The notes under the pieces are model-generated. The model ran no database searches, was not told the DNA's origin, and saw only the letters and a program-made list of their open reading frames with translations. Shown here piece after piece: positions 5,209-52,327 of a stretch of 64,000 bases of DNA. Location of the stretch: positions 139,313 through 203,312 of the forward strand of contig CALUHR010000003.1 in NCBI GenBank assembly GCA_944320495.1, read 5' to 3'. Each line of letters starts with the position of its first letter. Positions within the stretch are counted from its first letter, which is position 1. This stretch comes from Candidatus Methanomethylophilaceae archaeon (GTDB lineage: Archaea > Thermoplasmatota > Thermoplasmata > Methanomassiliicoccales > Methanomethylophilaceae). Both the position numbers and the translations under genes were made by a program.

Positions 5209-5213
5209 ACCGA

Positions 5214-5250
5214 GGGCGCCGGAAGGCGTCCTCCGGGAAAACACCCTTAC
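5214..5250 (+). terminator. Hairpin plus AAAACACCCTTAC tail after tbp
   Basis: GGGCGCC-GGAA-GGCGTCC stem followed by an A/C/T-rich tail. Confidence 0.55.
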
Positions 5251-5651: not shown

Positions 5652-6031
5652 TGGATCACGACGACGGTGTCTGCGATCGCCCTCTTGAGCTCCTTGAGGG
5701 CCTGATGGGTGACCTTCTCCTCCTTGACGGAGGGGCCGATCTCCCGGAGGTACTTCGCGTAGAGCTTCGGCGATATGTCCTTGGCGGAGGCCAGCACGAG
5801 CAGATCCTCCTCGTCCCCCGTGTCCAGGGAGTCGATGTCCCCACCGTAATAGGCAGCGGCCATCCTGTAGAAGCGTATGTCGGTGTTGAGGAACTCCGCG
5901 ATGTCCAGGAAATCCGCCGAGTTATCCGGCTCCTCGAAGGCACGCATTATGAACTTCTCGCGCTCGGAGAGCTTCCGGTCCGCCCCTGTGGAAAATCTAT
6001 CGGCCAAATCCCTCCTCTCTACTCTTATCAT
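5648..6031 (-). CDS. Hypothetical protein
   Basis: Start placed at MIRVERRD. The longer 6097 start in the ORF track crosses an in-frame CGA in AT-richer sequence. Confidence 0.6.
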   Translation of the reverse strand: MIRVERRDLADRFSTGADRKLSEREKFIMRAFEEPDNSADFLDIAEFLNTDIRFYRMAAAYYGGDIDSLDTGDEEDLLVLASAKDISPKLYAKYLREIGPSVKEEKVTHQALKELKRAIADTVVVIQ

Positions 6032-6093
6032 GGTATCACACTGAATCTTCGATCCATTCCATCGGTGAATGTCTATCCGCATCCTCCGACCGA

Positions 6094-6861: not shown

Positions 6862-7366
6862 CGAATGTCCCCTGAATCGGAATGCTATCTATATTACAGA
6901 ACCCCAGGAACTTGAAAAACACTTGTCCCATATCCTCGTAGGAATCAATATCCAATAGATCCTTGGGACGATATGCCCACTTGTCTTCGAATCCCTCACG
7001 GTATATGTGGATGTGAGGTTCTTTGATAAAACGGCGACCCGCGTATCCTGGCTGAATATCCTTCAGCCAATCTCCGTCGCCAAGCTCCAATTCCACAGGA
7101 GGATTCGTATGTGAACCGCCAACATCCAGCCTTACAAGACTGTATGTCTTTGAATATCTGGTCTGGAAAGTGTACTTTAGAATCACCCTCCCACGTTCCA
7201 CATCCAAAGTAAAGATATCATGGAGATTGCTCGTGTAGAGATCTATGTGTCTATCTGTTCCTGGGCTGATAACGACACTGCGACAATCAGAGAACTTCTT
7301 TCTGGATATCAGCTCGAATACCTGCTCTTGAGAAAGATTTGGGTGGGCCGTAGCATCAGAATCCAT
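6842..7366 (-). CDS. DUF6978-like protein
   Basis: LVRLDVGG.HTNP...PHIHIYREG..DKWAY. Overlaps the start of the downstream gene; AT-richer. Confidence 0.7.
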   Translation of the reverse strand: MDSDATAHPNLSQEQVFELISRKKFSDCRSVVISPGTDRHIDLYTSNLHDIFTLDVERGRVILKYTFQTRYSKTYSLVRLDVGGSHTNPPVELELGDGDWLKDIQPGYAGRRFIKEPHIHIYREGFEDKWAYRPKDLLDIDSYEDMGQVFFKFLGFCNIDSIPIQGTFDDQGRY

Positions 7367-7414
7367 ACGAATCCTGATAGATATGCGAATATATATGAGT
7401 ATTCGATTGCTTAT

Positions 7415-8074
7415 TCACATCCTCTTGCAGCCGCGGAGCAGCCACTCGCCAATGGACTTGACACCGTACTTCAGCGTGGCCTTCATGTGGCGGCTGTGAC
7501 TGCAGACGATGGGCGCGTCGTTGTGCATGATGTACTCGACGACCTCCTGCCATGTGGTGAGGTCGTCGGGGACCTCCACGTAGCCCTCGCCTATGTGGCG
7601 GGGCGTATGGGCGTCGCTGCCGGCAGTCATCGGCTTGCCGATCCTCCTGGCCAGCTTCTCCGAGCGCCTGTTGCCCCTCGGGGTGGAGCGCCCGTTGCGG
7701 GCCTCGATCCCGTCGAAGGGATACGCCAGGGTGTTCTTCTCCCCGAGGCCGGACCACCATCTGTAGGGATGGGCGGCGAACGCGTAACCGCCGGCCTCGT
7801 GGATCCTGTCTATGGTCTCCTGGATGGAGAGGTCCCGCGGGATCAGCCTGTCGATGCCGAGGGCGACTATGTGGCCCTCGGCCGACGAGACCTCTTCCGC
7901 GGGTATGATTATGACGCGGCCGTTGTCCTTGAGGCGCTCGTACGCCTCGAACTGGTTGTGGTCGGTCACGGCGATGCAGCCGATCCCCATGCGCTCCGCG
8001 TATTCCAGCAGCTCCTCCAGCGTGGTCTTGCCGTCGTTGGAGTACAGCGTGTGCACATGGAGATCCGCCTTCAT
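7415..8074 (-). CDS. PHP-domain metal-dependent phosphoesterase
   Basis: MKADLHVHT.YS.DG, AVTDHN, EEVS, AHPY, GSDAH. ATGA overlap with the metG stop. Confidence 0.9.
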   Translation of the reverse strand: MKADLHVHTLYSNDGKTTLEELLEYAERMGIGCIAVTDHNQFEAYERLKDNGRVIIIPAEEVSSAEGHIVALGIDRLIPRDLSIQETIDRIHEAGGYAFAAHPYRWWSGLGEKNTLAYPFDGIEARNGRSTPRGNRRSEKLARRIGKPMTAGSDAHTPRHIGEGYVEVPDDLTTWQEVVEYIMHNDAPIVCSHSRHMKATLKYGVKSIGEWLLRGCKRM

Positions 8075-11835: not shown

Positions 11836-12720
11836 TCAGGGACCCATGGACGTTATCGGAACGACGCAGACGCCGTCCGGACGCCTGTACGCGTACCTGG
11901 TCATGCCGCATACCACACACAGGACCGACGGCGGGGTTCTCTCCTTCCTGAAGAACTCCTCCATCCTTTTCAGGTTCTCCGCCGCAGCATCGATCTGCCC
12001 CGCCCCGAGTTTGATCTCGAATGCGCCCCATCTGCCGTCCTCGGCCTCCACCACCGCATCGATCTCCCTCCCACGGCCGTCGCGGTAATGGAAGAGCCTG
12101 CCGCCCTCATGTTCCGCGTATATCTGGAGGTCATGTTCGCAGAGTGCCTCGAACAGGAATCTCGTGGTTCTGAGGTCGTTCCTGAGCATCTGGGCGTTGA
12201 GCCTCATGGCCGCCACAGCAAGTGACACGTCTGTCAGATGACGCTTCGACTCTTCCCGATGCGGGCATCGGACCTCACATTCGGACTGAAACTGGGCATA
12301 TCATCGATGAGATGCATCCTGTACAGGCAGTTCATGTAGTCCGCGAACGTGTCGTTCGAGATGCTCTCGTTCTCGTACTCCCTCATATCCGATTTGATCT
12401 TCGAGTTCGAAGCCAAGGTGCTCTCGTTGCGGGCCAGCGAGCGGATCAGCATCGACATCTTCCGTTCGTCACGGCTCCTGCCGTCCATACGGGCCGCGTC
12501 CTCCGTAGCATTGTCCACGTACGCTCTGGCCAACATGGAGGGATACCCTCGGGATCCAAGTGCACCGGGCCAGCCCCCGCGAATCGGCATGGTTCTCTGC
12601 GGTCCATGTCTTACCGCACCAGCGTGGATTCTCGATCGATATTGCCCCGAACGCCTCGAGCATCTCCTCCATCTCCTCGTCGAGAAGTCTGGGTCTGTTT
12701 CCTTTAGGAGTCGGGGTCAT
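11836..12720 (-). pseudogene. Degraded AAA_14/DUF4143 ATPase
   Basis: Three fragments in different frames: RPRLLD...PRWCGKT, GWP...RSLARN...FSPNVRS, and KRHLTD.SL...FHYRD..GREIDAVVE...EIK. Central region deleted; frameshift near 12250. Confidence 0.85.
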
Positions 12721-15857: not shown

Positions 15858-16202
15858 ATGGAAGCATACAAGATCGGCGTCACGGTGCCTCTCGGCACCG
15901 AGCATGAGATGATGGACACCCTCGACGGATACTTCTCCCCGCTCTATCCCGGATACGACCACGTTTACTCGTGGTGGGAGACCGAGGGGAGCTGGAGACC
16001 CCTGGAGGGGTCGCACCCGCACCAGGGGGAGATCGGCAGGATCGAACGCGCCCGCGAGGTGCGCATAGAGTTCGCGGTACATGCCCGGGACGCGCCCGCG
16101 GTGGTCCGCCGCATCGCGGAGGTCCATCCCTTCGAGGAACCCGCGATAGACGTGATCCCGCTGATCCCGTGGAAGGACGTCGCTGTGCTGGACGGTAGTT
16201 GA
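15858..16202 (+). CDS. Stand-alone PII/CutA-like domain (YqfO/Nif3 insert-like)
   Basis: YKIGVTVP...G.WRPLEGS.P..GEIG.IE...E.RIEF...HPFEEPAIDVIPL. Confidence 0.75.
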   Translation: MEAYKIGVTVPLGTEHEMMDTLDGYFSPLYPGYDHVYSWWETEGSWRPLEGSHPHQGEIGRIERAREVRIEFAVHARDAPAVVRRIAEVHPFEEPAIDVIPLIPWKDVAVLDGS

Positions 16203-16740
16203 ACAGGTTGTCGAAGGACTTCTGCATCCTGTGGATCTTGAGGCTCTGCTTCCTGTACGCGAGCTCCCCGTCGTCGATCAGTCCCATGGCGTTGTACCTG
16301 TCCAGGACCGCGAAGGCACCGTCGTAGTCGCCGTCGACGCCGACCATGATGTCGATTAGCCTGTTCCTGCATGAGAGCCTGCCCTCGGGCGGGAACGATG
16401 CGGAGACGGCTGGATACAGATCCAGATTCCTCAGGCACATGGCCTTGGCGTCGGCGAACCTGTCGGAGCCGAAGAGGCCCTCGATGAGACCCTCCGTCGC
16501 CCTGAACCTGGAGACGTCGTCGAGCTCGGCTGCCTCGAGGAACTCCCCAGCTGTCACGGCGAGTTTGTAGTTGTGGTCGTCGACCGCGCGGGACATCAGG
16601 TCCGTGAGGAATCCGAGCTGGGAGGACGTGTCTATGCCGTCAACGTACCTGCGAACCCTGACCCTGTCCTGGGAGGACAGGCCGGAGTACCATCCGTCAA
16701 GCCCCGCCTGGGTGACCTGAGAGGGGATCTCATCTGCCAT
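16180..16740 (-). CDS. Hypothetical helical (TPR-like) protein
   Basis: Host-like codons up to ...NLFNYRPAQ, then CGA at 16180-16182. The standard-code ORF continues to 15880, antisense over most of the neighbouring gene. Confidence 0.7.
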
Positions 16741-16764
16741 GGGACCGGAATCGTCGCATCTGGT

Positions 16765-28765: not shown

Positions 28766-29674
28766 ATGACAGTCTACAACAGCATAACCGAGACGATCGG
28801 GGACACGCCGATGATCCGCCTCAACAGCATGGCGCCGCCGGGATCCCACGTCTACGTCAAGAGGGAGAGCGTCAACCCCAGCGGCTCCATCAAGGACCGC
28901 GCCGCGCTGTCCATCATCGACGACGCGGTCGCCCGCGGTCTGCTGAAGGAGGGCGGGACGATCATCGAGCCCACCTCCGGGAACATGGGCATCGGCCTCG
29001 CGATGATAGCCGCGGCCCGCGGCTACAAGGCGGTCATCGTCATGCCGGAAACCATGAGCAAGGAACGCATCTCCCTGATGCGCGCCTACGGGGCTGAGGT
29101 CGTCCTCTCCCCTGGCGCGCAGGGCATGCAGGGCTCCGTGGACATGGCGAACGAGATCGCGAGGGAGCGCGGCGGATTCATCGCGGGACAGTTCGACAAC
29201 CCCGCCAACTCCGCGGCCCACCGCACCGGGACTGGGAAGGAGATCCTCAGGGACCTCCCCGACGTGGACCTCGTCTACGCCGGCTTCGGCACCGGCGGCA
29301 CGGCCACCGGGATCGCCATGGCCTTCAGGGACGCGGGGTCCAAGGCCCAGGTCATCGGGATAGAGCCGGCCGAGAGCCCCCTGGTCTCCGAGGGGAGGGC
29401 GGGCCCGCACGCCATCCAGGGCATCGGAGCCAACTTCGTCCCCGGTAACCTGAACAGGGACCTCCTCGGAGGGGTCGAGACCGTCACCGGCGATGACGCC
29501 GTACGCACGGCGGTCGAGCTCTGCAGGAAAGAAGGCATCTTCTGCGGCATATCCTCCGGCGCCAACGTATTCGCCGCCATCCGCGCCGCCAGGGAGCATC
29601 CCGAGAAGCGCATCGTCGCCATCCTGCCGGACGGAGGGGACAGATACCTCAGCACCGGCATGTTCGACGAGTGA
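28766..29674 (+). CDS. cysK: Cysteine synthase (O-acetylserine sulfhydrylase)
   Basis: [44 protein letters not shown]. Confidence 0.95.
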
Positions 29675-29678
29675 TAGG

Positions 29679-30605
29679 ATGCCGGTCAAGATCCCGGACG
29701 ACCTGCCGGCAGCGGCCGTGCTGGAATCCGAGAACATATTCGTGATGTCCGCCAGGAGGGCGGACACCCAGGACATCCGCCCGCTGGAGATCCTCATCCT
29801 GAACCTCATGCCCACCAAGGTCGAGACCGAGATCCAGATCCTCAGGTGCCTGAGCAACAGCCCGCTCCAGACGAACGTCACGCTGCTCCAGATGTCCTCT
29901 CACGAATCGAAGAACACCTCCGCGGAGTACCTGGAACGCTTCTACAAGACCTTCGACGACGTCAGAGAGATGAAGTTCGACGGGATGATCATCACCGGGG
30001 CCCCCCTCGAATCGATAGAATACGAGGACGTGGACTACTGGCCGGAGTTCTGCGAGATCATGGACTGGACGCTCACCAACGTCTGCTCCACCCTCTACAT
30101 CTGCTGGGGCGCCCTCGCCGGGCTGTACTACCACTACGGGATACCGAAGCACTCCATGGACTCGAAGGTCTCAGGGATCTTCGAGCACCGCGTGCTCATA
30201 CCGAACGAGCCCATAGTCAGAGGCTTCGACGACCGCTTCTTCATGCCTCAGTCGAGGCACTCGGAGGTCAGGGCGGAGGACATCGCGGCGAACCCGCATC
30301 TGCACATCATCTGCGCCTCCGAGGACTCCGGCGTCGCCGTGGTCCAGTCGGAGATGAACCAGACGTTCATCACGGGACATCTGGAGTATGATGCCGCGAC
30401 GCTGTCGTACGAGTACGAGAGGGACCTGAACGCCGGCAAGAACCCGCACGTGCCGGACAACTACTTCGAGGACGACGACCCGCACAAAGACCCGGTGGTC
30501 AGGTGGAGGGCCCATGCCACGCTCTTCTACACCAACTGGCTCAACTACTGCGTGTACCAGGAGACCCCGTACGACATCGACGAGATCGGCAGGCGCCGAT
30601 CGTGA
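29679..30605 (+). CDS. metA: MetA-family homoserine O-acyltransferase, predicted acetyltransferase
   Basis: [22 protein letters not shown] (Glu at the acyl-specificity position), ICWGA, GHLEYD. Confidence 0.92.
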
Positions 30606-30727: not shown

Positions 30728-31861
30728 TCGCTGGCTGACCACCCTCGGGTTCACGAGCTTCCCGACGAGGGCGTCCCTGACGAACATGTTTATGCCCGAG
30801 TAGTCGCCGTCCGAATCCAGGAGCTTCTGGACCTCGTCGGCTATGTGTGTGAACACCTCGCGGAAGATCCTGCATGAGTCCCCGTCGGTGTTCTCGAGGC
30901 CTACCTCGTGGTAGGCGTCCATGCTGCACCCTCCGTTGCAGAACCTGTAGATGGGACACGAGGCGCACTTCTCCCTGCGGGCGACGGAACCCGCCAGGAT
31001 CCTACGGAAGCCCTCAGAATGGAAGGCCTCGTCGAGGCTGGAGATGGAATTCACATTGCCCATGCAGAACTCTGGCGGGCAGGCCTTGGCACACGGGTAT
31101 ATCGAACCGTCGGGGTTGACGCAGACCCACTTGGTGAGACAGGATGTGTGGGCGCAGTCCGAGGGCGTGGGATCGCCCAGATAGTTGAGGACGTAGAGGT
31201 AGTGCGGGATCAGGGGGACCTTGCTGCCGGCGTCATGGAGCCATGTGTCGAAGGCCTCTATGCTGCCCCTGATGTACTCGTCCGGATCCGGGACGGTGCC
31301 GTTGCATCTGGCGCATCCCGCCGGAATCACCGGGGACATGGAGATGTTCGTCCCCCTGTCGCGATAGTACTCGTAGATCTCCCTCTGCTTCAGCGCCGTC
31401 TCGCGGGAGATTGTGGCGCTGACGGAGTACTTGTTATCCTTGTCGGATAGCATCGAGATGGCCTTCTCGGGATCCAGCTCCCTCAGAACATTGTTGTAGG
31501 GACCTTCGCACGACACGCCGACGTTGATCATCTTCTCGCGGCAGTATGCCATGAGACGGCGGTTGAGGAGCGTCCCGTTGGTCTGTATGGTGTTCCCCAC
31601 ACGGAAGGAGGACTTTCCGAAGTGCTTCTCCTCCAGCTCGATGGCCTTCTTGTAGAAAGACATCGGGACGGTGAGCGGCTCCCCGCCGTGCCATATGAAC
31701 CAGGCCGCCTGGTACTCGGTGGCGACCATGCCCATGAGACGGTCCAGCGTCTCAAGGCTCATCTCTCCCCGGACGCGCTCGTCCGGGGCATGATAGCAAT
31801 GGCTGCAGGATTCGTTGCAGAAAAGGGTCGGTTTTATGACGACCGATATGTACGGCTTCAT
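30728..31861 (-). CDS. Radical SAM/SPASM-domain protein (anSME-like, probable peptide maturase)
   Basis: CNESCSHC, WHGGEPL, QTNGTL; SPASM CAHTSC...YPC...CASC.....CNGGC...C. Ends NPRVVSQ-CGA at 30728-30730. The standard-code ORF runs through the terminator into metA, to 30545. Confidence 0.9.
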
Positions 31862-31878
31862 GGCCGGCTTCCGCCGGC

Positions 31879-32187
31879 TCAGAAGGGCCAGTAGGTCCAG
31901 ACGCCGTTGAATCCATTGGTGGCGTAGCAGCAGCAGATGCAGCAGACCACGACGCAACCGACGACGCAGGCGTGCCATCCCATACTGTTGCAGTATCCCT
32001 TCTCGCTGCAGCAGCAGTAGTCGCACTTGGAGTCTCCGCCGTGGTCCTCGTCGGCCGCCTTGTCGAAGCGCTCGTCATGGGTGTGCTCCTGGGGGAGTCC
32101 CTCCATCGCGAACGCGATGAAAGCCGAGGGGGACTGGCTCTCGTAAATCGCTGTCAGGTTGTCTACGGATTCCACGTCGTAAGCCAT
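31879..32187 (-). CDS. Cys-rich small protein, candidate RiPP precursor
   Basis: 102 aa: an acidic Cys-free half ending in GG (residues 50-51), then 12 Cys in residues 55-87. Ends 17 nt upstream of the rSAM start. Confidence 0.8.
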   Translation of the reverse strand: MAYDVESVDNLTAIYESQSPSAFIAFAMEGLPQEHTHDERFDKAADEDHGGDSKCDYCCCSEKGYCNSMGWHACVVGCVVVCCICCCYATNGFNGVWTYWPF

Positions 32188-34331: not shown

Positions 34332-34388
34332 TGAGATCGCCTACGCACCGCAGTTCATTGATTAAATATGGAATGGGGTTGGGGGTGC

Positions 34389-34955
34389 ATGGTCGTCAGG
34401 GTAGCGTACATGGGAATCCCGGGCTCCAACTCCGAGCAGGCGGCGACTGAGCTCGCCGGCGCCATGGGCTGGGACGTCTTCGTACTCATTCCTAAGGAGG
34501 ACTCCAGGAACACTGTTGCAGCCCTCGATTCCGGGGAGGCGGACTACGGTGTCGTCGCATCCCGCAACGTCACCGCCGGACCCGTAGAGGAGACTGAGAG
34601 GTCCCTCGAGGGGAGGGGTGACATCGAGATCCTCAGGGCCCTCTGGCTGCCCATCCACCACTGCGTCTTCGTTAAGCATCCCGGGGTGAGCGTCAGACGC
34701 GTCGCCTCCCACATCCAGGCCCTCCTGCAGACGAAGGAGCACCTCAATATGCTCTATCCGGACTCCGACAGGGTCGAGGTATCCGACACGGCCGTCGCGG
34801 CCGAGATGCTCTCGGACGGCAGGCTCCCCGAGGACACCGCGGTGGTCTGCCGCCGCAACGCAGGGGAGATGTTCAGGCTCCACCTCGTCCACGAGAACAT
34901 CGAGGACATGGAGGGGAACATGACGGAGTTCGAACTCCTGAGGCTCAGACGATGA
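34389..34955 (+). CDS. pheA: Prephenate dehydratase catalytic domain (no ACT domain)
   Basis: VAYMGIPGSNSEQA, LPIHHC, SHIQAL.Q, DTA.AA, NIED..GNMT.F. Ends AGA CGA TGA. Confidence 0.8.
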   Translation: MVVRVAYMGIPGSNSEQAATELAGAMGWDVFVLIPKEDSRNTVAALDSGEADYGVVASRNVTAGPVEETERSLEGRGDIEILRALWLPIHHCVFVKHPGVSVRRVASHIQALLQTKEHLNMLYPDSDRVEVSDTAVAAEMLSDGRLPEDTAVVCRRNAGEMFRLHLVHENIEDMEGNMTEFELLRLRR

Positions 34956-35488
34956 TCGCCGAACAGATAGAGAAGGACGCCCGCCGTCTGGACGAGATCA
35001 TCGCCGGATACAACAAAGAGGCGAACCGCGCCAAGCAGTCCAGGGATGAGTTCCACAGACGCGCCTCCGAGCTCGCGGACCGCAGGGACAAGCTCCAGAA
35101 GAAGGCCAAGTCCCTCTCCGCGGAGGCTGCCGTCTACAAAGCTCGCAGGGACGACGCCAACCTCACCGCCAAGGAATGCCGCGCCCGCAGGGACGAGTGG
35201 AACGACCGCGGGGCCAGAATGCGCGCGTCCGGAGGCCTCGGCGACATCGGCGAGTGCAAATCGCAGGCGAACAGCTGGCACCAGAAGGCGGTCAAGGCCT
35301 CCGAGGACGCCAACACCGCCCACGAGAAGATGCATCAGCTCTACGACGAGGCGGACAGGCTTAGGGCGGAGGCGCAGAAGTGCCACGAACAGTACCTCGA
35401 CTGCAAAAGGGGCGCCGACGCGGAGCACACGAGATACATCCAGGCCGTCAGGAGCATAGAGCGCGTGAGGGAGAACCTCCCCGATCGA
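34952..35488 (+). CDS. Archaeal coiled-coil protein (COG1340-like)
   Basis: Heptad-rich R/K/E sequence. Ends RENLPD-CGA at 35486-35488; the standard-code stop is at 35638. Confidence 0.75.
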
Positions 35489-36036
35489 GGGCGCAGCATC
35501 ACGTCCCCGCGCCTTATCGCCATGAAACGGTACTCGCGCATCCTCCCGGTCTTCGGGTCCGGGAGCTCGAGGATGCCTGTCTCCCTGAAGTTCGATTTCT
35601 CGAGACATCTGCCGGAAGCCTCGTTCTCGGTATCGTGACGGGCCTGGATCCACTCGTAGCTGGTGGTGTCGAACACATAGTTCACCACCGCCCTCAGGGC
35701 CTCGGTCATGTAACCGCGGTCCCAGTACCGCTGAGAGAGGCAGTATCCTATCTCACAGTAGCCCTTCTCCGGATGCTCCCTCACCACGGTTATGCTGCCT
35801 ATCGGCTCGTCGCTCCCGCGCAGCGTTATGCACCAGTCCATGGTGCCGCTCGCGTATTCTGACACCCACTCGGCTATCGTCCGGCGGCTCACCTCCGGAT
35901 CTGGATGGGTCTCCCACGACAGGAATCTGGTGACGTCCGGGTCGGACATCCAGTTCCTGAACGCGGCCTCGGCATCGTCCTCCCTGAACCTCCTCAGTTG
36001 GAGGCGCTCGGTCAGGAGGCGCGCCGTACCCCTCAT
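35485..36036 (-). CDS. GNAT N-acetyltransferase (RimJ/RimL-like)
   Basis: TERLQLRRF, EIGYCL..RYW.RGYMTEAL, N.ASGRCLEK. Ends at CGA 35485-35487, giving 183 aa. The standard-code stop is at 35341. Confidence 0.9.
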
Positions 36037-36171: not shown

Positions 36172-36678
36172 TCGCACCCGGGGCTCGGTACCGGGGCTCC
36201 TGCGATGGATTATCCCCCGGACGACGCTGTACGGGATGTCCATGGACAAGGATATGTCCAGGCATCCGCGGCCTCTGCGGTACTCCCTCATGACGTCGTC
36301 CTCCATCAGCATGGACATCTCCCTCGGAGGTATCACGACCTCCGGCTCGATGTCCCACAGACGGGTTCCGCAGAACGGGCAGCGCTTCGGCAAATGGGAG
36401 CTCTTGGAGTCCCAGGAGACGCCGCACCTCAGGCACCTGTACGACTTCAGGGGGACGTTCCACTGATGGGATCCGCAGGACGGGCAGCGCTTGGGCTTGC
36501 CGTCATGGGAGTTCCATGTGTGGCCGCATCTTACGCAGGTGACCTTCAGGTCCGGATTGTTCCATTTGACCGAACGGCAGCGTGGGCAACGCTTGGGTGG
36601 CTGTCCCCTGCGGGGCATCCACTCATAGGAGCACCTGTGACACACCAATCTGGATTCTGGGGCGAACTGTGGATGCAT
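36172..36678 (-). CDS. Triple zinc-ribbon repeat protein with a C-terminal HTH-like segment
   Basis: Three copies of CxRC.x.W...PKRCPxC.S/T..W. Ends EPRV-CGA at 36172-36174; the standard-code stop is at 36076. Confidence 0.8.
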
Positions 36679-36775
36679 AATAAATATTCTACCTTATGGA
36701 TATATGAACATTTGTACTTAGAAAATGAAACAAACGTTATTGGTCCGACGACCTTAGTCGATTTAGAATGCTACA

Positions 36776-39430: not shown

Positions 39431-40711
39431 ATGCGTTGCGGCGAGTGCGGCAGGGAGATCGAGGACGGGTCCAGATACTGCCCGTGGTGCGGTGCAACAT
39501 CCTCCTTCATCCCCTCGGACAGGAGAAGTGGCAGGAAGCGGACAGCCATGCTGGCGGCATTCGCCGTGGTAGCGCTGGTCATCGTGGCGGCGTTCATCGC
39601 CTCCATGGACTACGACAGGACCGATGACAGGACCCTGAACCCTCAGACCCAGCCCGACGGCGGATCCACGGTGGTATTCACCGATGGAGTCTACTACGTC
39701 AGCGGCGAGGATGCGGGCCTCTTCGACTTCGAATTGACCGAAAGCGACGGGGTCAGACAGCTCGTCGTCACCCTCGACGAATCGGTCGCATCGCAGTACG
39801 GCAGCTTCACGTGGTACGTCAATGACGAGAGCAAGTGGCCGTGGGGGTACCAGCAGATCGAGAAGACGGAGCCCGTGCTCTACTGGACCCTGAACGATGA
39901 CACCGTCGGCGATTTCAGCGTCGGCGTGGTGTGCAGGGAATCCTCCGACTTCCCGTCGTTCTTCCCCGTCGGCGGCACGGAGTACTCGGTCGACGTCTCC
40001 ATAGACGGGACCTACATCCAGCAGTACTCCTGGACCCACCAGGGGAAGTCCTACGAGCTCTCGGTCGACTACACCTACTCCGACTTCATCGAGGTGTCCG
40101 GATCCAGCGGTGCGAGCCTCGCCAAGAGGATGGGGTACGGCAACGGGACCTATTCGGTCGTGACCGACTTCATCACCGTGGACGAGACCGTCACCGAGAT
40201 GGAGAAGGGCCTCTCTGAGCTGTATCTGGGCACCTACGGCGCGATGGACGCTGCCGGATACACGGAGTTCGTCCTCGCCTTCGTCCAGACATGCTTCGGA
40301 TACACATACGACAGCGTCCTCTACGGACAGCAGGAGTACTACGCGTTCCCCCTGGAGACCATACACAACGGGGGAGGGGACTGCGAGGACACATCCATCC
40401 TGTGCGCAGCGCTCTACGAGGCCGCCGGATACGATGCCGGCGTGTTCATCATCCCCGGCCACGCGATCGCCGCGGTGGCCCTGGACGGATTCACCCCAGC
40501 CGAGACCTCCGTCACGACGGTGTCCGTGTTCAGCTTCGATATGGACGGCAAGACCTACTACGGGTGCGAGACGACCCTCGACTACAACACCTACGGCATC
40601 GGCTGGATCGGCAGCGAATACGCCATCGCCGCGGACGGCACCGTGTACTGCGAGGGGGAGGCCTACAGGGACCAGGGCTACGGGCTGTACGTCGTCAGCG
40701 AGAAGGATTGA
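39431..40711 (+). CDS. Zinc-ribbon/TM-anchored transglutaminase-like protein
   Basis: N-terminal CGECG...CPWCG, then a TM helix, then GDCEDTSIL.AAL...GYD...PGHA. Confidence 0.8.
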   Translation: MRCGECGREIEDGSRYCPWCGATSSFIPSDRRSGRKRTAMLAAFAVVALVIVAAFIASMDYDRTDDRTLNPQTQPDGGSTVVFTDGVYYVSGEDAGLFDFELTESDGVRQLVVTLDESVASQYGSFTWYVNDESKWPWGYQQIEKTEPVLYWTLNDDTVGDFSVGVVCRESSDFPSFFPVGGTEYSVDVSIDGTYIQQYSWTHQGKSYELSVDYTYSDFIEVSGSSGASLAKRMGYGNGTYSVVTDFITVDETVTEMEKGLSELYLGTYGAMDAAGYTEFVLAFVQTCFGYTYDSVLYGQQEYYAFPLETIHNGGGDCEDTSILCAALYEAAGYDAGVFIIPGHAIAAVALDGFTPAETSVTTVSVFSFDMDGKTYYGCETTLDYNTYGIGWIGSEYAIAADGTVYCEGEAYRDQGYGLYVVSEKD

Positions 40712-40886
40712 TCCAAACCCCTTACCGGCCGTCCGATGGCCGGGCCCATCATCTTATCTTCACGTCTTACCTGTATAGACTCCTCACATCTATTTGAATC
40801 TATGATTTTTCCTCATGATTCAATCGTCTAATCATCTTGTTTTCTGCCAGATATCCGTCTAAATCATCGTCTCCGAATCATTTTCT

Positions 40887-40932
40887 ACAATATTATACAA
40901 TAACTCACAATAAAATACATTAAATAACAAAA
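40887..40932 (+). repeat. Five ACAATA-like hexamers phased every 10 bp
   Basis: ACAATA at 40887, 40897 and 40907, ACATTA at 40917, ACAAAA at 40927. Confidence 0.75.
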
Positions 40933-40970
40933 GAGGCATCTCTAAATCACAACGAAAGAGAGAGGCGGAG

Positions 40971-41918
40971 ATGTACAGCCCAACGTTCGAAGAATCCAGG
41001 AAGTACGCATCCGAAGGATACGGCGCGATTCCGGTGTCGCGCACGATCCCGGCGGATGTCAGGACCCCGATCGAGACCCTCAGGGCGCTCATGCGCGAGG
41101 ATTTCATCATAAGGGTCCATAAACTGCTTGGCATGGTTCTCGAAGAAGCCAAGCGTAAAGGGATCATCGAAATCAACGTTGTTCGTGAGAGAATGCGCAC
41201 CCCCAGACATCCACGGAAATCGAAGTTGGAAGAAGACAAGAAGGCGCTCAAACCCGAGGATGTCATTGAAATCGTCCGTTGTCTGGATGAGGAGCCGATT
41301 ACATGGCGTTGCATCCTCTATACAATGGTCATCACCGGTGCTCGCAGAGGTGAAGTCTGTGCCCTGACTTGGGACAGTCTGGATTTCAAAAACAACAACA
41401 TCTGGATAGACAAGGCAGTCAGACGGATGCCTCACGAAGAGTTAATCATCAAGGATCCCAAGACATTCAGTTCGGAAAGAATCGTCTACATGACTCCGGA
41501 CCTCAAGAATCTGTACGATCTCCTGAAAAAGACGCAGGGAGGACCAGCATCGGGCTTCATCTTCAAAAATCAGAGGAATCCCGAAATGCCAATGCACCCA
41601 GATTCCATCACGTCCCATCTGAAGACGTTCAGCAAGAAACATGGGATGGAGTTCTCTCCGAAGATGCTGAGAGCGTCCTTCGTATCATTCCTGATAGCAA
41701 CGCTTCATGTTGATCCTAGAACCGCACAGGACATCGTAGGACACTCGTCCATTGAAGTCACTATGGGCATCTACGCACGTTCTAACAACGGATCCAGAGA
41801 GCTTGCACAAATTGAGATGGAAGAGTATATCCGCAACATGGTGGCGAGGAGTTCCGACGATGAATTGAATGCTCAAAATCATCCCTCTCAGGCAATATCT
41901 TGTGAAGAGTCAGAGTAA
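40971..41918 (+). mobile_element. Chimeric ORF: TrpE N-terminus (~44 aa) fused in frame to a tyrosine integrase catalytic domain
   Basis: MYSPTFEE...AIPVSRTIPADVRTPIETLRAL resembles the start of anthranilate synthase component I. From about 41100 the sequence is AT-richer and carries TGARRGE, PKT, MLRAS, GHS and IY integrase motifs. Adjacent to the tRNA-Thr 3' end. Confidence 0.8.
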
Positions 41919-42008
41919 CGTTTTTCCCTGATTTTTCCCAATTTTGCCTTTAGAGTTGGAAAAAAGCAAGTAGAAACCTCTCCATATTTAAAGAGCTTAA
42001 ATAAGGTA

Positions 42009-42083
42009 TGGAGCCGCCTGAGGGATTTGAACCCCCGGCCTGCTGATTACAAGTCAGCCGCTATACCCCTAAGCCAAGGCGGC
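42009..42083 (-). tRNA. tRNA-Thr (TGT)
   Basis: GCCGCCTTGGCTTAGGGGTATAGCGGCTGACTTGTAATCAGCAGGCCGGGGGTTCAAATCCCTCAGGCGGCTCCA. Confidence 0.97.
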
Positions 42084-42213
42084 ACTGAGACCGCCGATGT
42101 CGGCATCGTTTAAATCCGTTTGCGCTGGATTCTCCGATTGTCTAATCGTTACCGACACCATTATATCAGAAAAAGCGTTGGGCGCGTTTAATTTAAATTA
42201 AAGGTGAATCCAA

Positions 42214-42906
42214 ATGGCAGACACCAAGAAGCTCTTCCACATCAACTACACCGCCTCCTTCGCCGACACCGAGAAGATGTTCGACACCAACATCGAGTCC
42301 GTTGCCAAAGAGAACGACCTCTACAACGAGAAGGTCACCTACGCCCCCATGCCGTACATCACCGGCTCCAAGATGTTCTTCCCCGAGGTCGACGAGGCCA
42401 TCGCCAACGGAGAGGTCGGAAAGGAGATCGAGATCACCGTCCCCTGCGAGAAGGCCGCCGGAGCCAGGAACCCCAAGAACATCGAGCTCCACGCCCTGAA
42501 GGACTTCTACAAGAACGAGATCAACCCCTACCCCGGCATGCCCGTCTCCCTCGGCAACCGCACCGGAGTCGTCATGTCCGTCGGAGCCGGCCGTGTCAAG
42601 GTCGACTTCAACAGCCCCCTCGCCGGCCACGACATCACCTACAAGGTGACCATCGTCGACGAGATCACCGATGCCGTCGAGAAGGCCAAGGCCATCATGG
42701 GCATCCACTTCACCGCCGCCGACGACTTCGGCTACGCCGTCATGGAGGACAAGGTCGTCATCACCGAGGCCGACGTCTGCAAGTTCCACGAGTCCTGGCC
42801 CATCGCCAAGTACTCCCTGGTCAGCGACTACCGCAACGTCTTCGGTGTCGACCGCGTCGAGTTCGTCCAGGTCTGGGAGACCGCCAAGAAGCCCGAGACC
42901 GAGTGA
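42214..42906 (+). CDS. Long-type archaeal FKBP peptidyl-prolyl isomerase
   Basis: FDTN, GKE.EITVP.EKA.G.R, GRVKVDFNSPLAG..I.YKV. Strongly biased, high-expression-type codon usage. Confidence 0.92.
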   Translation: MADTKKLFHINYTASFADTEKMFDTNIESVAKENDLYNEKVTYAPMPYITGSKMFFPEVDEAIANGEVGKEIEITVPCEKAAGARNPKNIELHALKDFYKNEINPYPGMPVSLGNRTGVVMSVGAGRVKVDFNSPLAGHDITYKVTIVDEITDAVEKAKAIMGIHFTAADDFGYAVMEDKVVITEADVCKFHESWPIAKYSLVSDYRNVFGVDRVEFVQVWETAKKPETE

Positions 42907-42913
42907 TTCTCAA

Positions 42914-42951
42914 CCAGGGGCCTCCGGGCCCCTGGCCCCAAACACCTTGAC
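42914..42951 (+). terminator. Hairpin plus AAACACCTT tail
   Basis: Perfect 9-bp stem CCAGGGGCC-TCCG-GGCCCCTGG. Confidence 0.7.
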
Positions 42952-42977
42952 CTTGATTTCTGAAAAATTAAAACGGC

Positions 42978-43406
42978 TCACTCCTGCGTGAACCTGACAT
43001 CCGAGACGGGACCCTTGCGCAGGGCCCCGTTGATCTCGGATTCCATCCTGTCCGCGAATCTGCCCTCGTACACGACCTCGATACTCCGCAACCTTACGGA
43101 GTCCATCGGCAGAGGTACGTTGCCCCCACAGCCCGTGTACGCATCCAACATGTTTGACAGCCGCTCAACGGCCTTCCTGACCCTATCGGGGACGGTCCCA
43201 TGCTCCGGCGACATCCTGATCTCGAGACACTCCGAGCGGAGAATCTCATCCATGACGTCCGTGAACTGATCCTCTATCTCGCATCTGCCCTTGTGATCAG
43301 TCAGGCACTTGACGCAGCCCCTGCATCTGCGTATGCGAAGGGTACTCAGATCCGCATCGCAGGGCTTCCCCGGGGAATCCGCGAGCACGAAGCGTTCACC
43401 GTCCAT
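42978..43406 (-). CDS. Flavodoxin-like/iron-sulfur flavoprotein-related protein (short)
   Basis: L.I..CRGC.KC......C.IED....VMD.I, an Isf-type Cys motif. Confidence 0.6.
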   Translation of the reverse strand: MDGERFVLADSPGKPCDADLSTLRIRRCRGCVKCLTDHKGRCEIEDQFTDVMDEILRSECLEIRMSPEHGTVPDRVRKAVERLSNMLDAYTGCGGNVPLPMDSVRLRSIEVVYEGRFADRMESEINGALRKGPVSDVRFTQE

Positions 43407-43467
43407 GACCGGTGGATGGTTTCCCGCGATATCTTCATTTCCATGGCAGCACCGCATCCGGACCGCT

Positions 43468-43614
43468 TCAGTCGAAGTACGCGAGGATTGAGTTGATCCC
43501 GCTGTTGGTGTTCACGTTCCTGGATCCGCGTCCGGCGGGACGCCTGCGGAAGTCCCTCTCACTGAAGCGCTGGGTGGGCTTGGGTATGATCAGTGTCTGC
43601 TGGTAGTATGCCAT
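43468..43614 (-). CDS. 48-aa basic small protein
   Basis: MAYYQQTLIIPKPTQRFSERDFRRR...; upstream AGGAG and a TATA-like TTATTATA. Confidence 0.5.
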   Translation of the reverse strand: MAYYQQTLIIPKPTQRFSERDFRRRPAGRGSRNVNTNSGINSILAYFD

Positions 43615-43680
43615 TTCCGTTCTCCTGCGGCCGTCAGGGCCGCGATATGACATTCCCCGGACACTATAATAACTGCTGGC

Positions 43681-43725
43681 TGTAATCTTGGTAATACTTG
43701 TAATATTAGTTAATTCTGTAATTCG
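43681..43725. repeat. Five 9-bp tandem units containing GTAAT
   Basis: TGTAATCTT GGTAATACT TGTAATATT AGTTAATTC TGTAATTCG. Confidence 0.75.
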
Positions 43726-43794
43726 CATGGATTGACAGGATATGGCTCACGCTGGGGGAATCTGAACGAAAGAAGAATGTCCGGGAACCGGATG

Positions 43795-44646
43795 TCACTC
43801 GTCGGTGTAGAAGGTCCCGATGATGTTGCGGCCCTCGTCGGTGAGCACGTAGCGGGAGCGGCGATCGTCCTTCTCCGCCCAGCCGAACTTCACCCATTTG
43901 GATATGAAGTCCCTCTGATAGTACACGGCCTCGGTCTGCCTCTGGTTGGACTTGATATCCTTTCCGCGGGATTCGGTATCCCTGTACCAGAGACCTGCCT
44001 CCTTCAGGGCAGCGACCATCTTGCCGCTGGTGACCGAGTCTCCGGCATCGTTCCTCTGGCTGAGGATCCTGAGACCGCGGACCAGATGCTCCTCCGGCAT
44101 CTCTATGACATAGCTGGGGAGCGTGCGAGGATCGTATGTGGACTTGGTGAGCCCGACGGGCTTCCCGTCCAGATAGTACACTTCGGGTATCCTCTCGGTG
44201 GGGACGGTGTACTCTTTCGATCCCACTGAGAACGGAATCGTGCCCGGTACCATCATGGACGCGATGGCCGAGGCAGCGGCATATTCCGGCGAACCGGCGG
44301 AGATATTGACATAAATCTCGCAGCCGTCCTCAGAGGAGTTCTCTTCCTGGATGATGGAGAGGACCGTGCGGAGCATCGTGGAGAAGTCGCTGACGCGCTC
44401 GTTGTGGTCGACGATCTCTATCGGAAGAGGGGACTCATTCTCGAGCAGCTCCTTGACGCGATTGCAGAAACTGTCGTAGACCTTTCCGCTCTCAGAGGCC
44501 GGATCCTTCACATAATGGATTATGTGGACCTTGTTGACCTCGTAGTAGAGAGATGGCTCCACGACCTTCGAGGTCTCGAAGGTCACGCATGCTACCATGA
44601 TCCTCTTCTTGCGGCCAGACGGCAAAGTACATCCCGATTTGAGCAT
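43795..44646 (-). CDS. DUF6293/HFX_2341-like regulator (CARF-like domain plus wHTH)
   Basis: ACVTFET..VVEP, KVHII, IYVNISAGS and a C-terminal winged-helix end (GW.EKD.RRSRYVLTDEG). Confidence 0.65.
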   Translation of the reverse strand: MLKSGCTLPSGRKKRIMVACVTFETSKVVEPSLYYEVNKVHIIHYVKDPASESGKVYDSFCNRVKELLENESPLPIEIVDHNERVSDFSTMLRTVLSIIQEENSSEDGCEIYVNISAGSPEYAAASAIASMMVPGTIPFSVGSKEYTVPTERIPEVYYLDGKPVGLTKSTYDPRTLPSYVIEMPEEHLVRGLRILSQRNDAGDSVTSGKMVAALKEAGLWYRDTESRGKDIKSNQRQTEAVYYQRDFISKWVKFGWAEKDDRRSRYVLTDEGRNIIGTFYTDE

Positions 44647-44920
44647 GAAACTAATGATATAAATAACTCTCATTACAGGAAGAACTTGGATAACGAGCAT
44701 TATCCATCAATCACATATTACGAAGATAACTTGCGATAGTTTAATAATATGGAGAGAAATCACTGTGCCAGTACCTCTCCCCGAGGTGCCAAGGGTAGCC
44801 CCATCCCAAGGAGCGGCTCATGAAAAGCAGGCCGGGGATCGAATCTTTTCGCATCTCCATCCATCAGATTCCCGGCCGACCCAAATCCTTATATCCAACA
44901 TCGTTATCGCTCGTCTCAAC

Positions 44921-44998
44921 GGACGGGTGGCCTAGTCTGGATATGGCGGCAGCCTCCTAAGCTGCAAGCCGGGGGTTCGAATCCCCTCCCGTTCGCCA
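44921..44998 (+). tRNA. tRNA-Arg (CCT)
   Basis: Acceptor GGACGGG/CCCGTTC, arm GCAGC-CTCCTAA-GCTGC, GTTCGAATC, encoded CCA. TTATAT at 44889. Confidence 0.96.
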
Positions 44999-45427
44999 TT
45001 TATCCCATCATATTGCGACCAGCGTGAGTTCTGCACCCTCAATCGCTACGAACAAGGATTCATCGTCACGCATGTACGCACAATGCTGGCAACACGCACC
45101 TTAGTACAACCGAGGACGGCATTGTGCATTGAGATTCCTGGATCAAGCTCATTGGGATCGACCAGACGGTAGTCGCCGAAAGTAACCTCTCTGACAAACA
45201 CCGCGACATTCCCGGCCCCATCATTTAGCCGTGACAGAAGAGAGGAATCGAAGTGCCAGACTGCGCAAGTAGGACACGCCCTGCCGCATCCCCATAGAAT
45301 ATGTGTCTCAATATAGACAACATATGTCACATCCTAACACATCTGGTCGTAGACAAACGCATTGTCGGATTCCTATTATATGCCATATCGAGGGATAGCC
45401 AGATAACCAGAACATCCGGTTGGTATA

Positions 45428-47677
45428 ATGGAAAAAAGGCAACTGATAGCGATCGTCGCCGTCATGTCGGTGATATGCCTCCTGGGGACATCCCTGTGCA
45501 TATCATCCGATGTGGAGGCTGATGACGGAAGGACCCTGATAGTCGAGACGAGTCCAGACTTCGCTCCCTTCGACTACCAGGTCGGCAAGGAATATGCCGG
45601 CATAGACATGGACATAGTCCGTGCCGTGTGCAACGACATGGGATGCAAGGTCGAATTCAGGACCAACACCTTCGACTCCATCCTCATGTCCGTGCCGTCC
45701 GGCAAGTGCGACATCGGCGCATCCGGTTTCAGCATCAACCCCGACAGGGAGAAGCAGGTCGATTTCTCGCTCCCCTATGCGGAGATCAACCAGGTGGTCG
45801 TCGCACCCAAGGACACGACCATCCAGACCAAGGAGGATCTCGAGGGGAAGATCATCTCTGTCCAGAACGGCACCACCGGCGCTGACTACGCGGCGGAGCG
45901 CTACTCCACTAGCAACATAAAATTCCAGAAGACGTACTCGGACGTCCTCCTGGATCTGAACACCGGCAAGGCCGATGCGGAGATCGTCGACAGCACAGTC
46001 GCCCTCGCCCAGTGCGCGGCGAACCCCAACCTCACAGTCCTCGACATCCTCGACGACTCCCCCGTCGAGCAGTATGGATTCATCTTCTCCAAGGAGAACA
46101 CCGCTCTGCGCGACGAGTTCAACGAGTCTCTCCAGCACATCATGGACAACGGTCTGTACGACATGATCATGGAGTACTACGAGGACAACGGATACTCCGC
46201 TGACACCCCCTCGTTCTTCACCACCAAGGGCACCCTCGTCGTCGAGACCAGCCCCGACTTCCCGCCGTTCGACAACATGCACGGCCAGGAGTACGTAGGC
46301 ATCGACATGGACATCATGAGGGCCATCGGGTACCAGATCGGCTACAACATCGAGTTCAGGCAGAACACCTTCGACTCCATCGTCCTCTCCGTCCAGCAGG
46401 GCAAGTGCGACGTCGGGGCCTCCGGATTCACCATCGACGACGACAGGAAGGAGCAGGTCGACTTCTCCACCCCGTACGCCGAGATCCACCAGGTCCTCGT
46501 CGTGAAGGAGAGCACGAATATCGAATCCAAGGAGGATCTGAAAGGCAAGACGGTCACATCCCAGCTCGGATCCAGTGGAGCCCAATACGCGACTGATCAT
46601 CTTCCGGGCACCAACCTGGTGGCGCAGAAGGACTACACCACCGCGCTGCTGGACGTCATCAGCGGCAAAGCCATCGCCGAGGTCGTCGACAGCACCGTGG
46701 CCGAGGCCCAGGTCGCCGCGAACGACGGACTGAAGATCCTCGACATCCTCGACGACGCCGAGACCGAGTACTACGGACTCATCTTCCAAAAGGGGGACAC
46801 CGCGACCTACAACCTGGTCAACGACGCCCTTGAGAAGCTCATCGAGAACGGCACCGTCGACAAGATCATCAACTACTACTCGTCGCACATCGGCGAGGAC
46901 GTCGCCTCATTCTACAGCGGAGATGCCGCCAGGGATGACACGGACGGAGACGATACTGACAAGGACGACGAGGAGGAAGAGGACGTCGGATGGTGGCAGG
47001 AGCTCAAGGACCGCTTCCACAACGACTTCCTGAAGAACGACCGTTACCTGTACATCTTCGAGGGTCTGAAGAACACCCTCATCATCACCGTCATTGCCCT
47101 CATCATCGGTCTGATCATCGGGTCCGTGGTCGCCATGGTCCGTAGCACCCACGACATGACGGGGAAGCTGAAGATCCTCAACGCGATATGCCATGTGTAC
47201 ATCACGGTCATACGCGGGACCCCTGTGATGGTCCAGCTGCTGCTGATCTACTATGTGGTGTTCGCCACGTCGGACCAGGGCATATTGATAGCATCGGTGG
47301 CGTTCGGAGTGAACTCGGGAGCGTACGTGGCCGAGGTGGTCCGTTCAGGCATAACCGCCGTCCCGAAGGGACAGATGGAGGCCTGCAGAAGCCTCGGTAT
47401 GAACAACAGGATGTCGATGACCAACGTCATCCTCCCGCAGGCGATCAGGAACATCACACCCGCCATCGGTAACGAGGGTATCTCCCTGCTCAAGGAGACC
47501 TCCGTCGCCGGTTATATAGGACTCATGGACCTGACCAGGGGAGCGGACATCATCAGAGGACAGACCTACGACGCGCTGCTGCCGATCCTGGTCGCTGCCG
47601 CCATCTATCTGGCCATAGTCCTCGTGCTGACATATGTGATCAGAAGAGTCGAGAAGAGGTTGAACGATGCCTACTGA
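45428..47677 (+). CDS. Polar amino-acid ABC transporter: two substrate-binding domains fused to a permease
   Basis: Two copies of ETSPDF.PFD...GIDMDI..A, an acidic linker, then a GlnP-type permease ([20 protein letters not shown]). Confidence 0.93.
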
Positions 47678-48410
47678 CGGAGAAGTCCTGATAGAGGTGA
47701 GGAACCTCGAGAAGTCCTTCGGTGACCACCAGGTCCTGAAGGACATCAGCCTGGACGTGCACAAAGGAGAGGTCATCTCCATCATCGGGCCGTCCGGATG
47801 CGGGAAGTCCACCTTCCTGAGATCCATCAACCTGCTGGAGAGGCCAACGGGCGGAAGCATAGTGTTCGAGGGTGTGGACATCCTCGACCCGAAGACCGAC
47901 GTGGACCTGCTCCGCCGCAAGATCGGCATGGTGTTCCAGAGCTTCAACCTCTTCCCGCACAAGAAGGTGAAGGAGAACATCATGCTCGCCCCTGTCAAGC
48001 TGAAGCTCATGACCGAGGAGGAGGCCTCCGCGAAGGCGGACGAGCTCCTCAGGAGGATCGGCCTCCTGGACAAGGCGGACCAGTACCCCTCGAGGCTGTC
48101 CGGCGGACAGCAGCAGCGTGTGGCCATCGCCAGGGCGCTCGCCATGAACCCGGACGTCATGCTCTTCGACGAACCGACGTCGGCGCTGGACCCCGAGATG
48201 GTCGGGGAGGTCCTGAAGATCATCAAGGACCTGGCGGACTCGGGCATGACCATGATCGTGGTCACCCATGAGATGGGATTCGCCAGGGAGATCTCCGACA
48301 GGGTGCTGTTCTTCAACGACGGCATCATCGCCGAGGAGAACACCCCGGAGGAGTTCTTCGGGAACCCGCAGAACGAGCGTCTCAAGGACTTCCTGTCCAA
48401 GATACTCTGA
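47667..48410 (+). CDS. glnQ: Polar amino-acid ABC transporter ATPase
   Basis: [38 protein letters not shown]. Confidence 0.95.
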
Positions 48411-51139: not shown

Positions 51140-52321
51140 TCGGAGCTGCTCCAACACCTCCCTCAGGAGGCCGGTGAACACATCCTTCTGCGCATCCGTG
51201 AGGATTAGCGGGGGTATGAGACGGATTGTCCCTCCATGGGCGACGTTTATCAGGACGCCGTTCTCGCGACAGTACCTCTGGACGTGGGCGGCCGTCTCCT
51301 TGGAGTCCATCTCCACCCCGATGATGAGCCCGCATCCGCGGACCTCCCTAATCCTTGGGGAGTCGATGGCCTTCAGATCGGCCATCCAGCGGGCGCCCAT
51401 CTCCTTGACATGGGGCACGATCCCATCGCGCTTCATGATGTCGATGGTCGCGCATCCTGCGGCGCACACCAGCGGGTTCCCTCCGAACGTGGTGCCATGA
51501 GACCCGGGCGTCATCACCTTGGAGATCTCATCGGTGGAGTTCACCGCACCGATCGGCACACCTCCGCCGAGGGCCTTCGCCATGGTCATGATGTCTGGAA
51601 CGACACCGTAGTTCTGTATGCCGTACCATTCGCCGGTGCGGCCTATCCCGGTCTGCACCTCGTCGGTGATCATTAGCGTACCGTTGTCGGTGCACAGGTC
51701 GCGGACGCCCTTGAAGAACTCGACGGTGGCCGTGTGGACGCCGCTCTCCCCCTGTATCGGTTCTACGATGAGCGCTGCGACGTCCCGTGTCATGAGCTCC
51801 TTCACCGATTCCAGGTCACCGAAGCGGAAATACCCGTACGAATGGGCGATAAGCGGCTCAAAGGACCTCTGGATGGACTCCTGGCCCGTGGCGCCCATGG
51901 CGGCGGACGTTCTCCCGTGGAAACCGTCGAAGGCCGCGATGACCTTGGAGCGTCCTGTGTAGCGGACCGCCAGCTTCAGTGCCCCTTCGTTGGCCTCCGC
52001 CCCACTGTTGACGAACAGCGTGCGGTCCATGCCGTCGGGCGTGATCGATGCGACCCTCTCGGCCAGATCCGCCTGCTCCCCCACGTAGTAGAGGTTGGAG
52101 ACGTGAGCCATCTTGGCTGCCTGCGCCTGGACCGCCGCGACCCAGTCTGGATGCGCGTATCCGAGAGCGTTGACGGCTATGCCGGCCACCAGGTCGAGGT
52201 ACTCGCGCCCATCGCTCCCGTGGAGGTAGCAGCCGCTGCCGTGTGTAAAGGACAGCGGTATGCGGCCGTAGTTCTGGAACAGATAACGGTCGCTCTTCTC
52301 CTTGACTGATTCGAAACCCAT
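51140..52321 (-). CDS. argD: Acetylornithine aminotransferase
   Basis: YLDLVAGIAVNALG, NSGAEANE, FHGRT, EPIQGESG, DEVQTG.GRTG, MAKALGGG, HGTTFGGNP. Ends LREVLEQL-CGA (393 aa). The standard-code stop is at 51047. Confidence 0.95.
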
Positions 52322-52327
52322 CTTGCA

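Follow-up and report, generated by a model that had tools for sequence, protein, structure and literature searches.

CGA very likely terminates translation beside TGA, TAA, and TAG in a Candidatus Methanomethylophilaceae archaeon: evidence from convergent genes sharing one TCGA

Two convergent genes of a Candidatus Methanomethylophilaceae archaeon, encoding a coiled-coil protein and a GNAT acetyltransferase, end within a single TCGA tetramer, each on a CGA that the standard code reads as arginine. Both proteins end at this tetramer, and the junction is very probably a clean, ortholog-verified case of CGA termination, although the evidence for that reading is DNA only. Beyond the junction, CGA very likely works as a termination signal throughout this genome and its genus, beside TGA, which predominates, TAA, and the seldom used TAG; this too is inferred from DNA, without protein or ribosome data. 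The junction lies in a window of 64,000 nucleotides (C3:139313-203312) of the source genome, G000, a MAG of 1.77 Mb with 61% GC in 14 contigs. The features at the junction, in positions of the window, are as follows.

35485..35488, no strand: the shared TCGA tetramer, holding the CGA of the plus-strand gene (35486-35488) and the CGA of the minus-strand gene (35487-35485)
34952..35488, plus strand: coiled-coil gene, 178 codons and CGA, with a partial DUF7121 match
36036..35485, minus strand: GNAT acetyltransferase gene (Acetyltransf_3, RimJ/RimL-like), 183 codons and CGA
35489..35638, plus strand: 50-codon tail that the standard code would add to the plus-strand frame, antisense to the GNAT coding sequence
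35341..35484, minus strand: 48-codon tail that the standard code would add to the minus-strand frame, antisense to the 3' portion of the coiled-coil gene
34950..34955, plus strand: CGATGA string at the end of the upstream gene, a tandem CGA-TGA, both codons of which are overlapped by the coiled-coil ATG (34952)

Under the standard code (table 11), the plus-strand frame would run on to 35638 and encode 228 amino acids and the minus-strand frame would run on to 35341 and encode 231, with the sole in-frame CGA of each at codon 179 and codon 184, respectively. The two reading frames would then overlap by 298 nt (35341..35638), compared to 4 nt if CGA is a stop. An earlier note on this stretch had claimed that the first CGA of both genes falls in one TCGA, which held exactly, and that the standard code imposes the 298-nt overlap, which held as well. 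The arrangement has what a shared-stop overlap requires, in that one palindromic tetramer holds both stops and both genes are real. The GNAT protein matches PF13302 with 123 bits over profile positions 1 to 138 of 138 (residues 11 to 151), meeting the family test of a full-length Acetyltransf_3 domain above the curated cutoff, and equivalog profiles for RimJ and AAC(6') put its C terminus near residue 180 to 183. The coiled-coil protein matches PF23435 (DUF7121) in part (E = 4.7e-10, residues 79 to 174). Profile searches found no family match in either tail, and the coiled-coil frame had no match past residue 175. Judged from sequence alone, both tails are the antisense of the opposite gene and do not themselves encode protein.

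The weight of the junction comes from its orthologs rather than from the number of TCGA sites that end genes. The GNAT gene was searched for in 30 relatives and found in most, and the junctions were aligned. In seven species (G014, G002, G006, G013, G004, G016, and G011) GNAT ends with TGA, one codon later than the CGA of G000 and reading ...FPD-TGA in the first three. In those species the convergent coiled-coil gene also has a TGA stop, which reads TCA on the GNAT strand (its end is ...LPD-TGA in G014), and the two stops lie 0 to 3 nt apart, abutting as TGATCA in G013 and G004. Compared to these relatives, G000 and G018 are about 10 nt shorter here through a deletion, and the orthologous stop is CGA in each, with GNAT ending ...LRP-CGA, the coiled-coil protein ending ...LPD-CGA, and an identical tetramer in both. 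G018 is a separate assembly, and its GNAT is 97% identical to that of G000. The coiled-coil CGA aligns codon for codon with the TGA of the relatives. Where relatives show similarity to GNAT residues 184 to 231, it is always behind a TGA or alone beside the coiled-coil gene, and we infer that it reflects the coiled-coil gene rather than an extension of GNAT. Codon periodicity of conservation in the tails was not used, since the third positions of both frames coincide and the measure cannot separate them. The earlier note had proposed this comparison and had named conservation beyond the CGA as the result that would refute its reading; no ortholog of either protein with sequence conserved past the CGA was found in the aligned junctions, and the refuting outcome is absent.

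The same behavior extends across the genome. A codon log-odds model was built from stop-to-stop open reading frames (ORFs), of which 981 were good. CGA occurred in frame in gene centers at about 0.1 to 0.4 per 1,000 codons, compared to 34 per 1,000 off-frame, and across the 981 ORFs only 3 CGA codons were both preceded and followed by coding-like sequence, compared to 305 for CGG, 678 for CGT, and 692 for AGA. One mark of a sense-to-stop change, that the codon has almost gone from conserved sense positions, is therefore met. A late CGA, in the last quarter of the frame, was present in 187 of the ORFs, and mean codon log-odds were +0.62 ahead of it but only −0.91 in the tail (tails of at least 15 codons). 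Altogether CGA closes about 19 to 24% of open frames. Of the 20 longest tails chosen for homology analysis, 19 were scanned against NCBIfam and 13 were informative. In all 13 the profile ended 0 to 30 residues before the CGA, and the scan found no family match after the CGA in any of them. Examples include the following.

SufS: CGA at codon 548, predicted profile end 546
TruD: CGA at codon 487, predicted profile end 486
Type II GAPDH: CGA at codon 401, predicted profile end 400-403
MsbA-like ABC protein: CGA at codon 599, predicted profile end 593
RarA: CGA at codon 448, predicted profile end 444
CbiR: CGA at codon 274, predicted profile end 270

At the C termini of SufS and GAPDH, CGA is found in 5 to 6 species among G000, G018, G010, G001, G003, G039, and G040, and in most members of the genus the aligned codon or its neighbor is TGA or TAA. 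In the genomes with CGA, the first standard stop lies up to 100 or more codons downstream. A second mark of a sense-to-stop change is thus met as well, in that CGA stands where homologs end and a standard stop is found there in orthologs.

Gene layout is consistent with these results. In a four-stop gene set of 1,552 genes, 1,110 end on TGA, 374 on CGA, 47 on TAA, and 21 on TAG. Convergent overlaps of at least 100 nt number 56 under the standard code and 1 with CGA as a stop. Stop/start overlaps of the form CGATG were found 81 times, 49 of them followed by a coding-like frame, with 79 and 39 as the corresponding numbers for TGATG. T is the next base after 55% of CGA stops, compared to 23% of all CGA trinucleotides and 28% of TGA stops. 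Within the window, 10 of the 49 modeled genes end on CGA, including both junction genes, and TAG ends only 2. For one of these 10, a radical-SAM/SPASM maturase, the CGA is codon 449, TIGR04083 predicts an end near 448, and the tail is 60 noncoding codons. The CGA-ended genes of the window other than the junction pair, with their modeled spans, are given below.

30728-32002, minus strand: radical-SAM/SPASM maturase, CGA at 30728..30730
2957-3805, 12246-12548, 16180-16764, 36172-36693, and 51140-52327, minus strand: other CGA-ended genes
29454-30599 and 34362-34952, plus strand: other CGA-ended genes

As a separate observation on the window, GC dips to 0.55 to 0.56 at 4001-8000 and 40001-48000, compared to about 0.61 elsewhere; these stretches are possibly islands, and the second holds tRNA-Thr and tRNA-Arg(CCT).

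How special the sharing of one TCGA is depends on the expectation used. The genome has 14,272 TCGA sites, of which 13 close a coding-like plus-strand frame, 13 close a coding-like minus-strand frame, and 2 do both, where 0.012 would be expected if the two were independent. This null ignores the closeness of convergent gene ends, and with the distribution of convergent gaps as the yardstick, 2 in 233 convergent pairs is no excess. The second double end, at C13:101501, is weaker, its minus-strand gene having a TGA directly after the CGA. The favored layout is instead abutting stops with a gap of 0, YGA|TCR, found in 27 of the 233 pairs, 26 of which involve CGA (13 CGATCG, 13 CGATCA or TGATCG, and 1 TGATCA; for example, C13:75631-75636 and C5:30886-30891). 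The abutting YGATCR arrangement gives each stop a T as its next base. Sharing of TCGA is likely to be a rare by-product of compaction and CGA termination, not an arrangement that is itself favored. The earlier note had called the tetramer the most specific single piece of evidence for CGA as a stop and had called for a genome-wide count; by that count, which is above independence and shows no excess over convergent gaps, it is not the strongest evidence, and the claim held only in part.

This signal extends over the genus (around Ca. Methanoprimaticola), with usage varying between members. In eight genomes, ORFs in which a late CGA precedes a noncoding tail made up the following shares.

G010: 28 of 106 ORFs (26%)
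G001: 25 of 99 ORFs (25%)
G000: 187 of 981 ORFs
G018: 9 of 61 ORFs
G015: 6 of 66 ORFs
G013: 9 of 103 ORFs
G004: 2 of 57 ORFs
G008: 3 of 107 ORFs

All eight have almost no sense CGA. In a control genome from another family (G024, 42% GC), CGA occurs at 1.0 per 1,000 and codon log-odds are 0.38 both before and after a late CGA. CGA is an ordinary sense codon there, and therefore the signal is not created by the method.

The reading of CGA as a stop given in the earlier note is thus supported by orthologs and by genome-wide tests, but CGA is not a clean stop. A third mark of a sense-to-stop change, that the cognate tRNA is lost or disabled, is not met. ARAGORN places a tRNA-Arg(UCG) in G000 at C13:413317-413390, and this tRNA is present in G018, at least 10 more members of the genus, and G008, with compensatory changes in its stems. 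The copy in G008 was found by Rfam scan and ARAGORN and missed by DNA and pattern searches. Conservation of the sequence suggests that the tRNA is likely functional, and its loss as the cause of CGA termination was rejected. Only the anticodon arm departs from the control. All copies in the genus have a 31:39 mismatch, leaving a 4-bp anticodon stem; the loop has U32/C38 in G000 and G018 versus C32/A38 in the others, and G008 has C33 and a 27:43 mismatch. The tRNA-Arg(UCG) of the control has a perfect 5-bp anticodon stem and the loop CUUCGAA.

The three internal CGA codons are at the boundary of tandem flavodoxin-like genes, at a GmhA|GmhB joint, and at Arg78 of the release factor aRF1, and only the last is clear. 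The flavodoxin-like ORF has its CGA at C8:55685-55687 on the plus strand (...GKTI-CGA-PFCTNEGSG), which may be a codon in genuine sense use, a site of readthrough, or part of a dead gene. At the GmhA|GmhB joint (C13:194143-194145, minus strand, in G000), 12 species have an in-frame CGA, 2 have TAG (G017 and G036), 3 have AGA or AAG, and 4 have TAA with a separate overlapping gene. The stretch from the joint CGA to the GmhB DxD motif holds no start codon. This joint could be a readthrough site or a fusion, and its decoding has not been observed. In addition, the conserved Arg of the GmhB DRDD motif is CGA in G011 and G035. Since CGA stands at conserved Arg sites in both aRF1 (Arg78) and GmhB (DRDD), we infer from sequence that it is still read as Arg in places.

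The genome has a single aRF1 gene with intact NIKS and YxCxxxF motifs. Its in-frame CGA encodes the invariant Arg78 (...SIAARLKTY; C2:86932-86934, minus strand). Arg78 is CGA in 61 of 97 relatives and in 44 of the 45 distinct sequences of the clade (at least 80% identity), and this is usually the sole CGA within the aRF1 gene. The context is GCT-CGA-C, with GCT preceding in 36 of 37 cases and C always the next base, and neighboring codons vary freely. No suppression of synonymous change downstream of codon 78, which would be a sign of RNA structure, was evident; only GCT-CGA is fixed. Among about 107 relatives, G28S occurs in aRF1 only in G000 and G018. Its S28 aligns with G31 of the GTS loop of human eRF1, a loop implicated in UGA decoding (PMC3632111). 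G28S was rejected as the cause, as G010 and G001 keep G28, yet 26% and 25% of their ORFs are closed by CGA. Tested as a prediction, G031, whose aRF1 has N at the residue 28 position, showed no CGA-stop signal. No genus-wide aRF1 substitution tied to CGA recognition was identified.

Where proteins end is shown; the mechanism, including recognition of CGA by aRF1, is inferred. The single aRF1 most likely reads YGA (UGA and CGA), best with U as the next base, and would out-compete a tRNA-Arg(UCG) with a noncanonical anticodon arm. The tRNA would probably be kept for the few CGA codons that need readthrough, above all Arg78 of aRF1, and that codon could give feedback control of the release factor level. 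The genus terminates almost only on TGA, with TAG nearly unused and TAA rare at this GC. The near absence of TAG is a likeness to pyrrolysine users; ARAGORN found no tRNA-Pyl in this genome, which is 90% complete. With a UGA-tuned factor accepting C at position 1 and a weakened tRNA, CGA would be purged from coding positions and TGA-to-CGA changes would persist. At the junction itself, the deletion of about 10 nt would have pushed abutting TGA/TCA-type stops into one palindromic TCGA. A bolder reading combines three proposals: that CGA is both a context-dependent fourth stop and Arg via a deliberately weakened tRNA-Arg(UCG), that GCU-CGA-C at Arg78 is a feedback sensor, and that CGA/TAG at the GmhA|GmhB joint is programmed readthrough yielding a single and a fused enzyme. 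Taken jointly, we lean slightly against it.

Of the alternatives to CGA termination, the most conservative is that the standard code holds, with CGA as a very rare Arg codon, mutually antisense extensions of about 50 residues on both proteins, and a true 298-nt overlap. In its favor, tRNA-Arg(UCG) is present and both frames are open to a standard stop. The openness of the tails can be explained, as reasoned from the coordinates, because the two strands share their third codon positions here, and in that register the strand opposite a GC-rich gene seldom contains stops. Against it, orthologs stop with TGA at the junction, the sequence after CGA is noncoding-like genome-wide, and family profiles never pass the CGA. 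About 1 gene in 5 would need a junk extension, and all 56 of the long convergent overlaps would have to be real. This explanation is very unlikely.

A second alternative is that CGA lacks an efficient decoder, so that ribosomes stall and are then rescued (by a Pelota-type pathway or unspecific release) without stop recognition. The noncanonical anticodon arm of tRNA-Arg(UCG) across the genus (the 31:39 mismatch, and C33 in G008), perfect in the control, would fit this view, and release at CGA in yeast has been framed as rescue (PMC7379694). However, about a quarter of genes, including housekeeping genes (GAPDH, SufS, TruD, and PriS), would depend on it, and two features, a strong bias toward T as the following base and overlap with the next start codon in CGATG, resemble an ordinary stop signal. 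We consider stalling very improbable. A third is C-to-U editing of mRNA, which would make UGA from CGA and leave the decoded stop standard. CGA and UGA do differ by C/U alone, and the preferred CGAU context could mark an editing site, but there are about 98,000 off-frame CGA trinucleotides, 23% of them followed by T, and editing those would alter many codons. Archaea are not known to edit mRNA, and while no RNA data are at hand, there is very little to recommend this explanation. Finally, an assembly or sequencing artifact in which the T of TGA was miscalled as C is all but excluded, as no support for it was found, the same TCGA occurs in G018, CGA ends other genes in G010, G001, G003, G040, G039, G013, and the single-contig G008 and G015, and the depletion of sense CGA cannot come from such an error.

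With CGA termination as the preferred reading, the closest known parallels are organellar. Sense-to-stop codes are listed as NCBI table 2 (AGA/AGG, vertebrate mitochondria), table 22 (UCA, Scenedesmus mitochondria), and table 23 (UUA, Thraustochytrium mitochondria), and green-algal cases have been described (PMC6821328). As in these codes, a sense codon leaves coding positions and sits at gene ends. Organelles, however, have tiny genomes in which the cognate tRNA is normally absent, whereas here a free-living or gut archaeon has 374 CGA ends on a 1.77-Mb chromosome, the cognate tRNA is retained, and CGA is apparently still read as Arg at a few sites. TTAA (TAA/TAA) and CTAG (TAG/TAG) shared stops have the same three-of-four-base reading per strand and the same 4-nt overlap; TCGA differs in working only with CGA as a stop and in being rare here (2 pairs, versus 27 abutting).

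Recognition of CGA by a release factor has precedent at low level. Yeast eRF1, the eukaryotic homolog of aRF1, releases peptides at CGA together with eRF3, competing with tRNA-Arg for the codon; release is stronger with UGA-biased eRF1 mutants, and one terminal CGA suffices for detectable termination (Wada and Ito, PMC7379694). In yeast this is a low-level error or rescue seen on reporters, whereas between a fifth and a quarter of the genes of the archaeon seem to depend on it. The stop/pyrrolysine use of UAG in methanogens is a case of one codon both terminating and being decoded by a dedicated tRNA, as CGA may be here. Bacterial prfB, with its in-frame UGA, is a release factor gene carrying a codon that its own factor recognizes, as the aRF1 gene would be if aRF1 reads CGA. 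The prfB gene needs a +1 frameshift, whereas in aRF1 the CGA codes in frame for an invariant Arg and needs none. Autoregulation of the prfB type is not met for aRF1, and only the logic of feedback could be common; neither feedback nor readthrough has been shown.

Absence of CGA from known domains has been reported in two archaeal MAGs, with a CGA stop raised as a possibility, in a 2026 preprint by Melnykov (10.64898/2026.04.02.715157). In that work the CGA stop is speculation only, as the method cannot infer stops. The organisms are also other than this genus, being hydrothermal-vent MAGs of about 50% GC in which CGG is Trp and no tRNA-UCG was found. Full-text literature searches turned up no demonstration that CGA, or any sense codon, serves as a stop in a cellular genome. 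As far as these searches go, no free-living organism has an established CGA stop, and here it is supported without protein-level proof.

Sense-to-stop changes have been accepted only for mitochondria, and a cellular genome that ends about one-fifth of its genes on an Arg codon would, if true, be a new entry among genetic codes. It would also point to a route of reassignment, in a genome where few other stops are in use, via near-cognate reading by a release factor (UGA to YGA). In these common gut methanogens, standard gene callers produce proteins that are wrongly extended or fused, by the hundreds, together with spurious overlaps such as the 298-nt one. With the tRNA retained and a CGA within the aRF1 gene, an ambiguous intermediate stage of codon reassignment becomes open to direct test.
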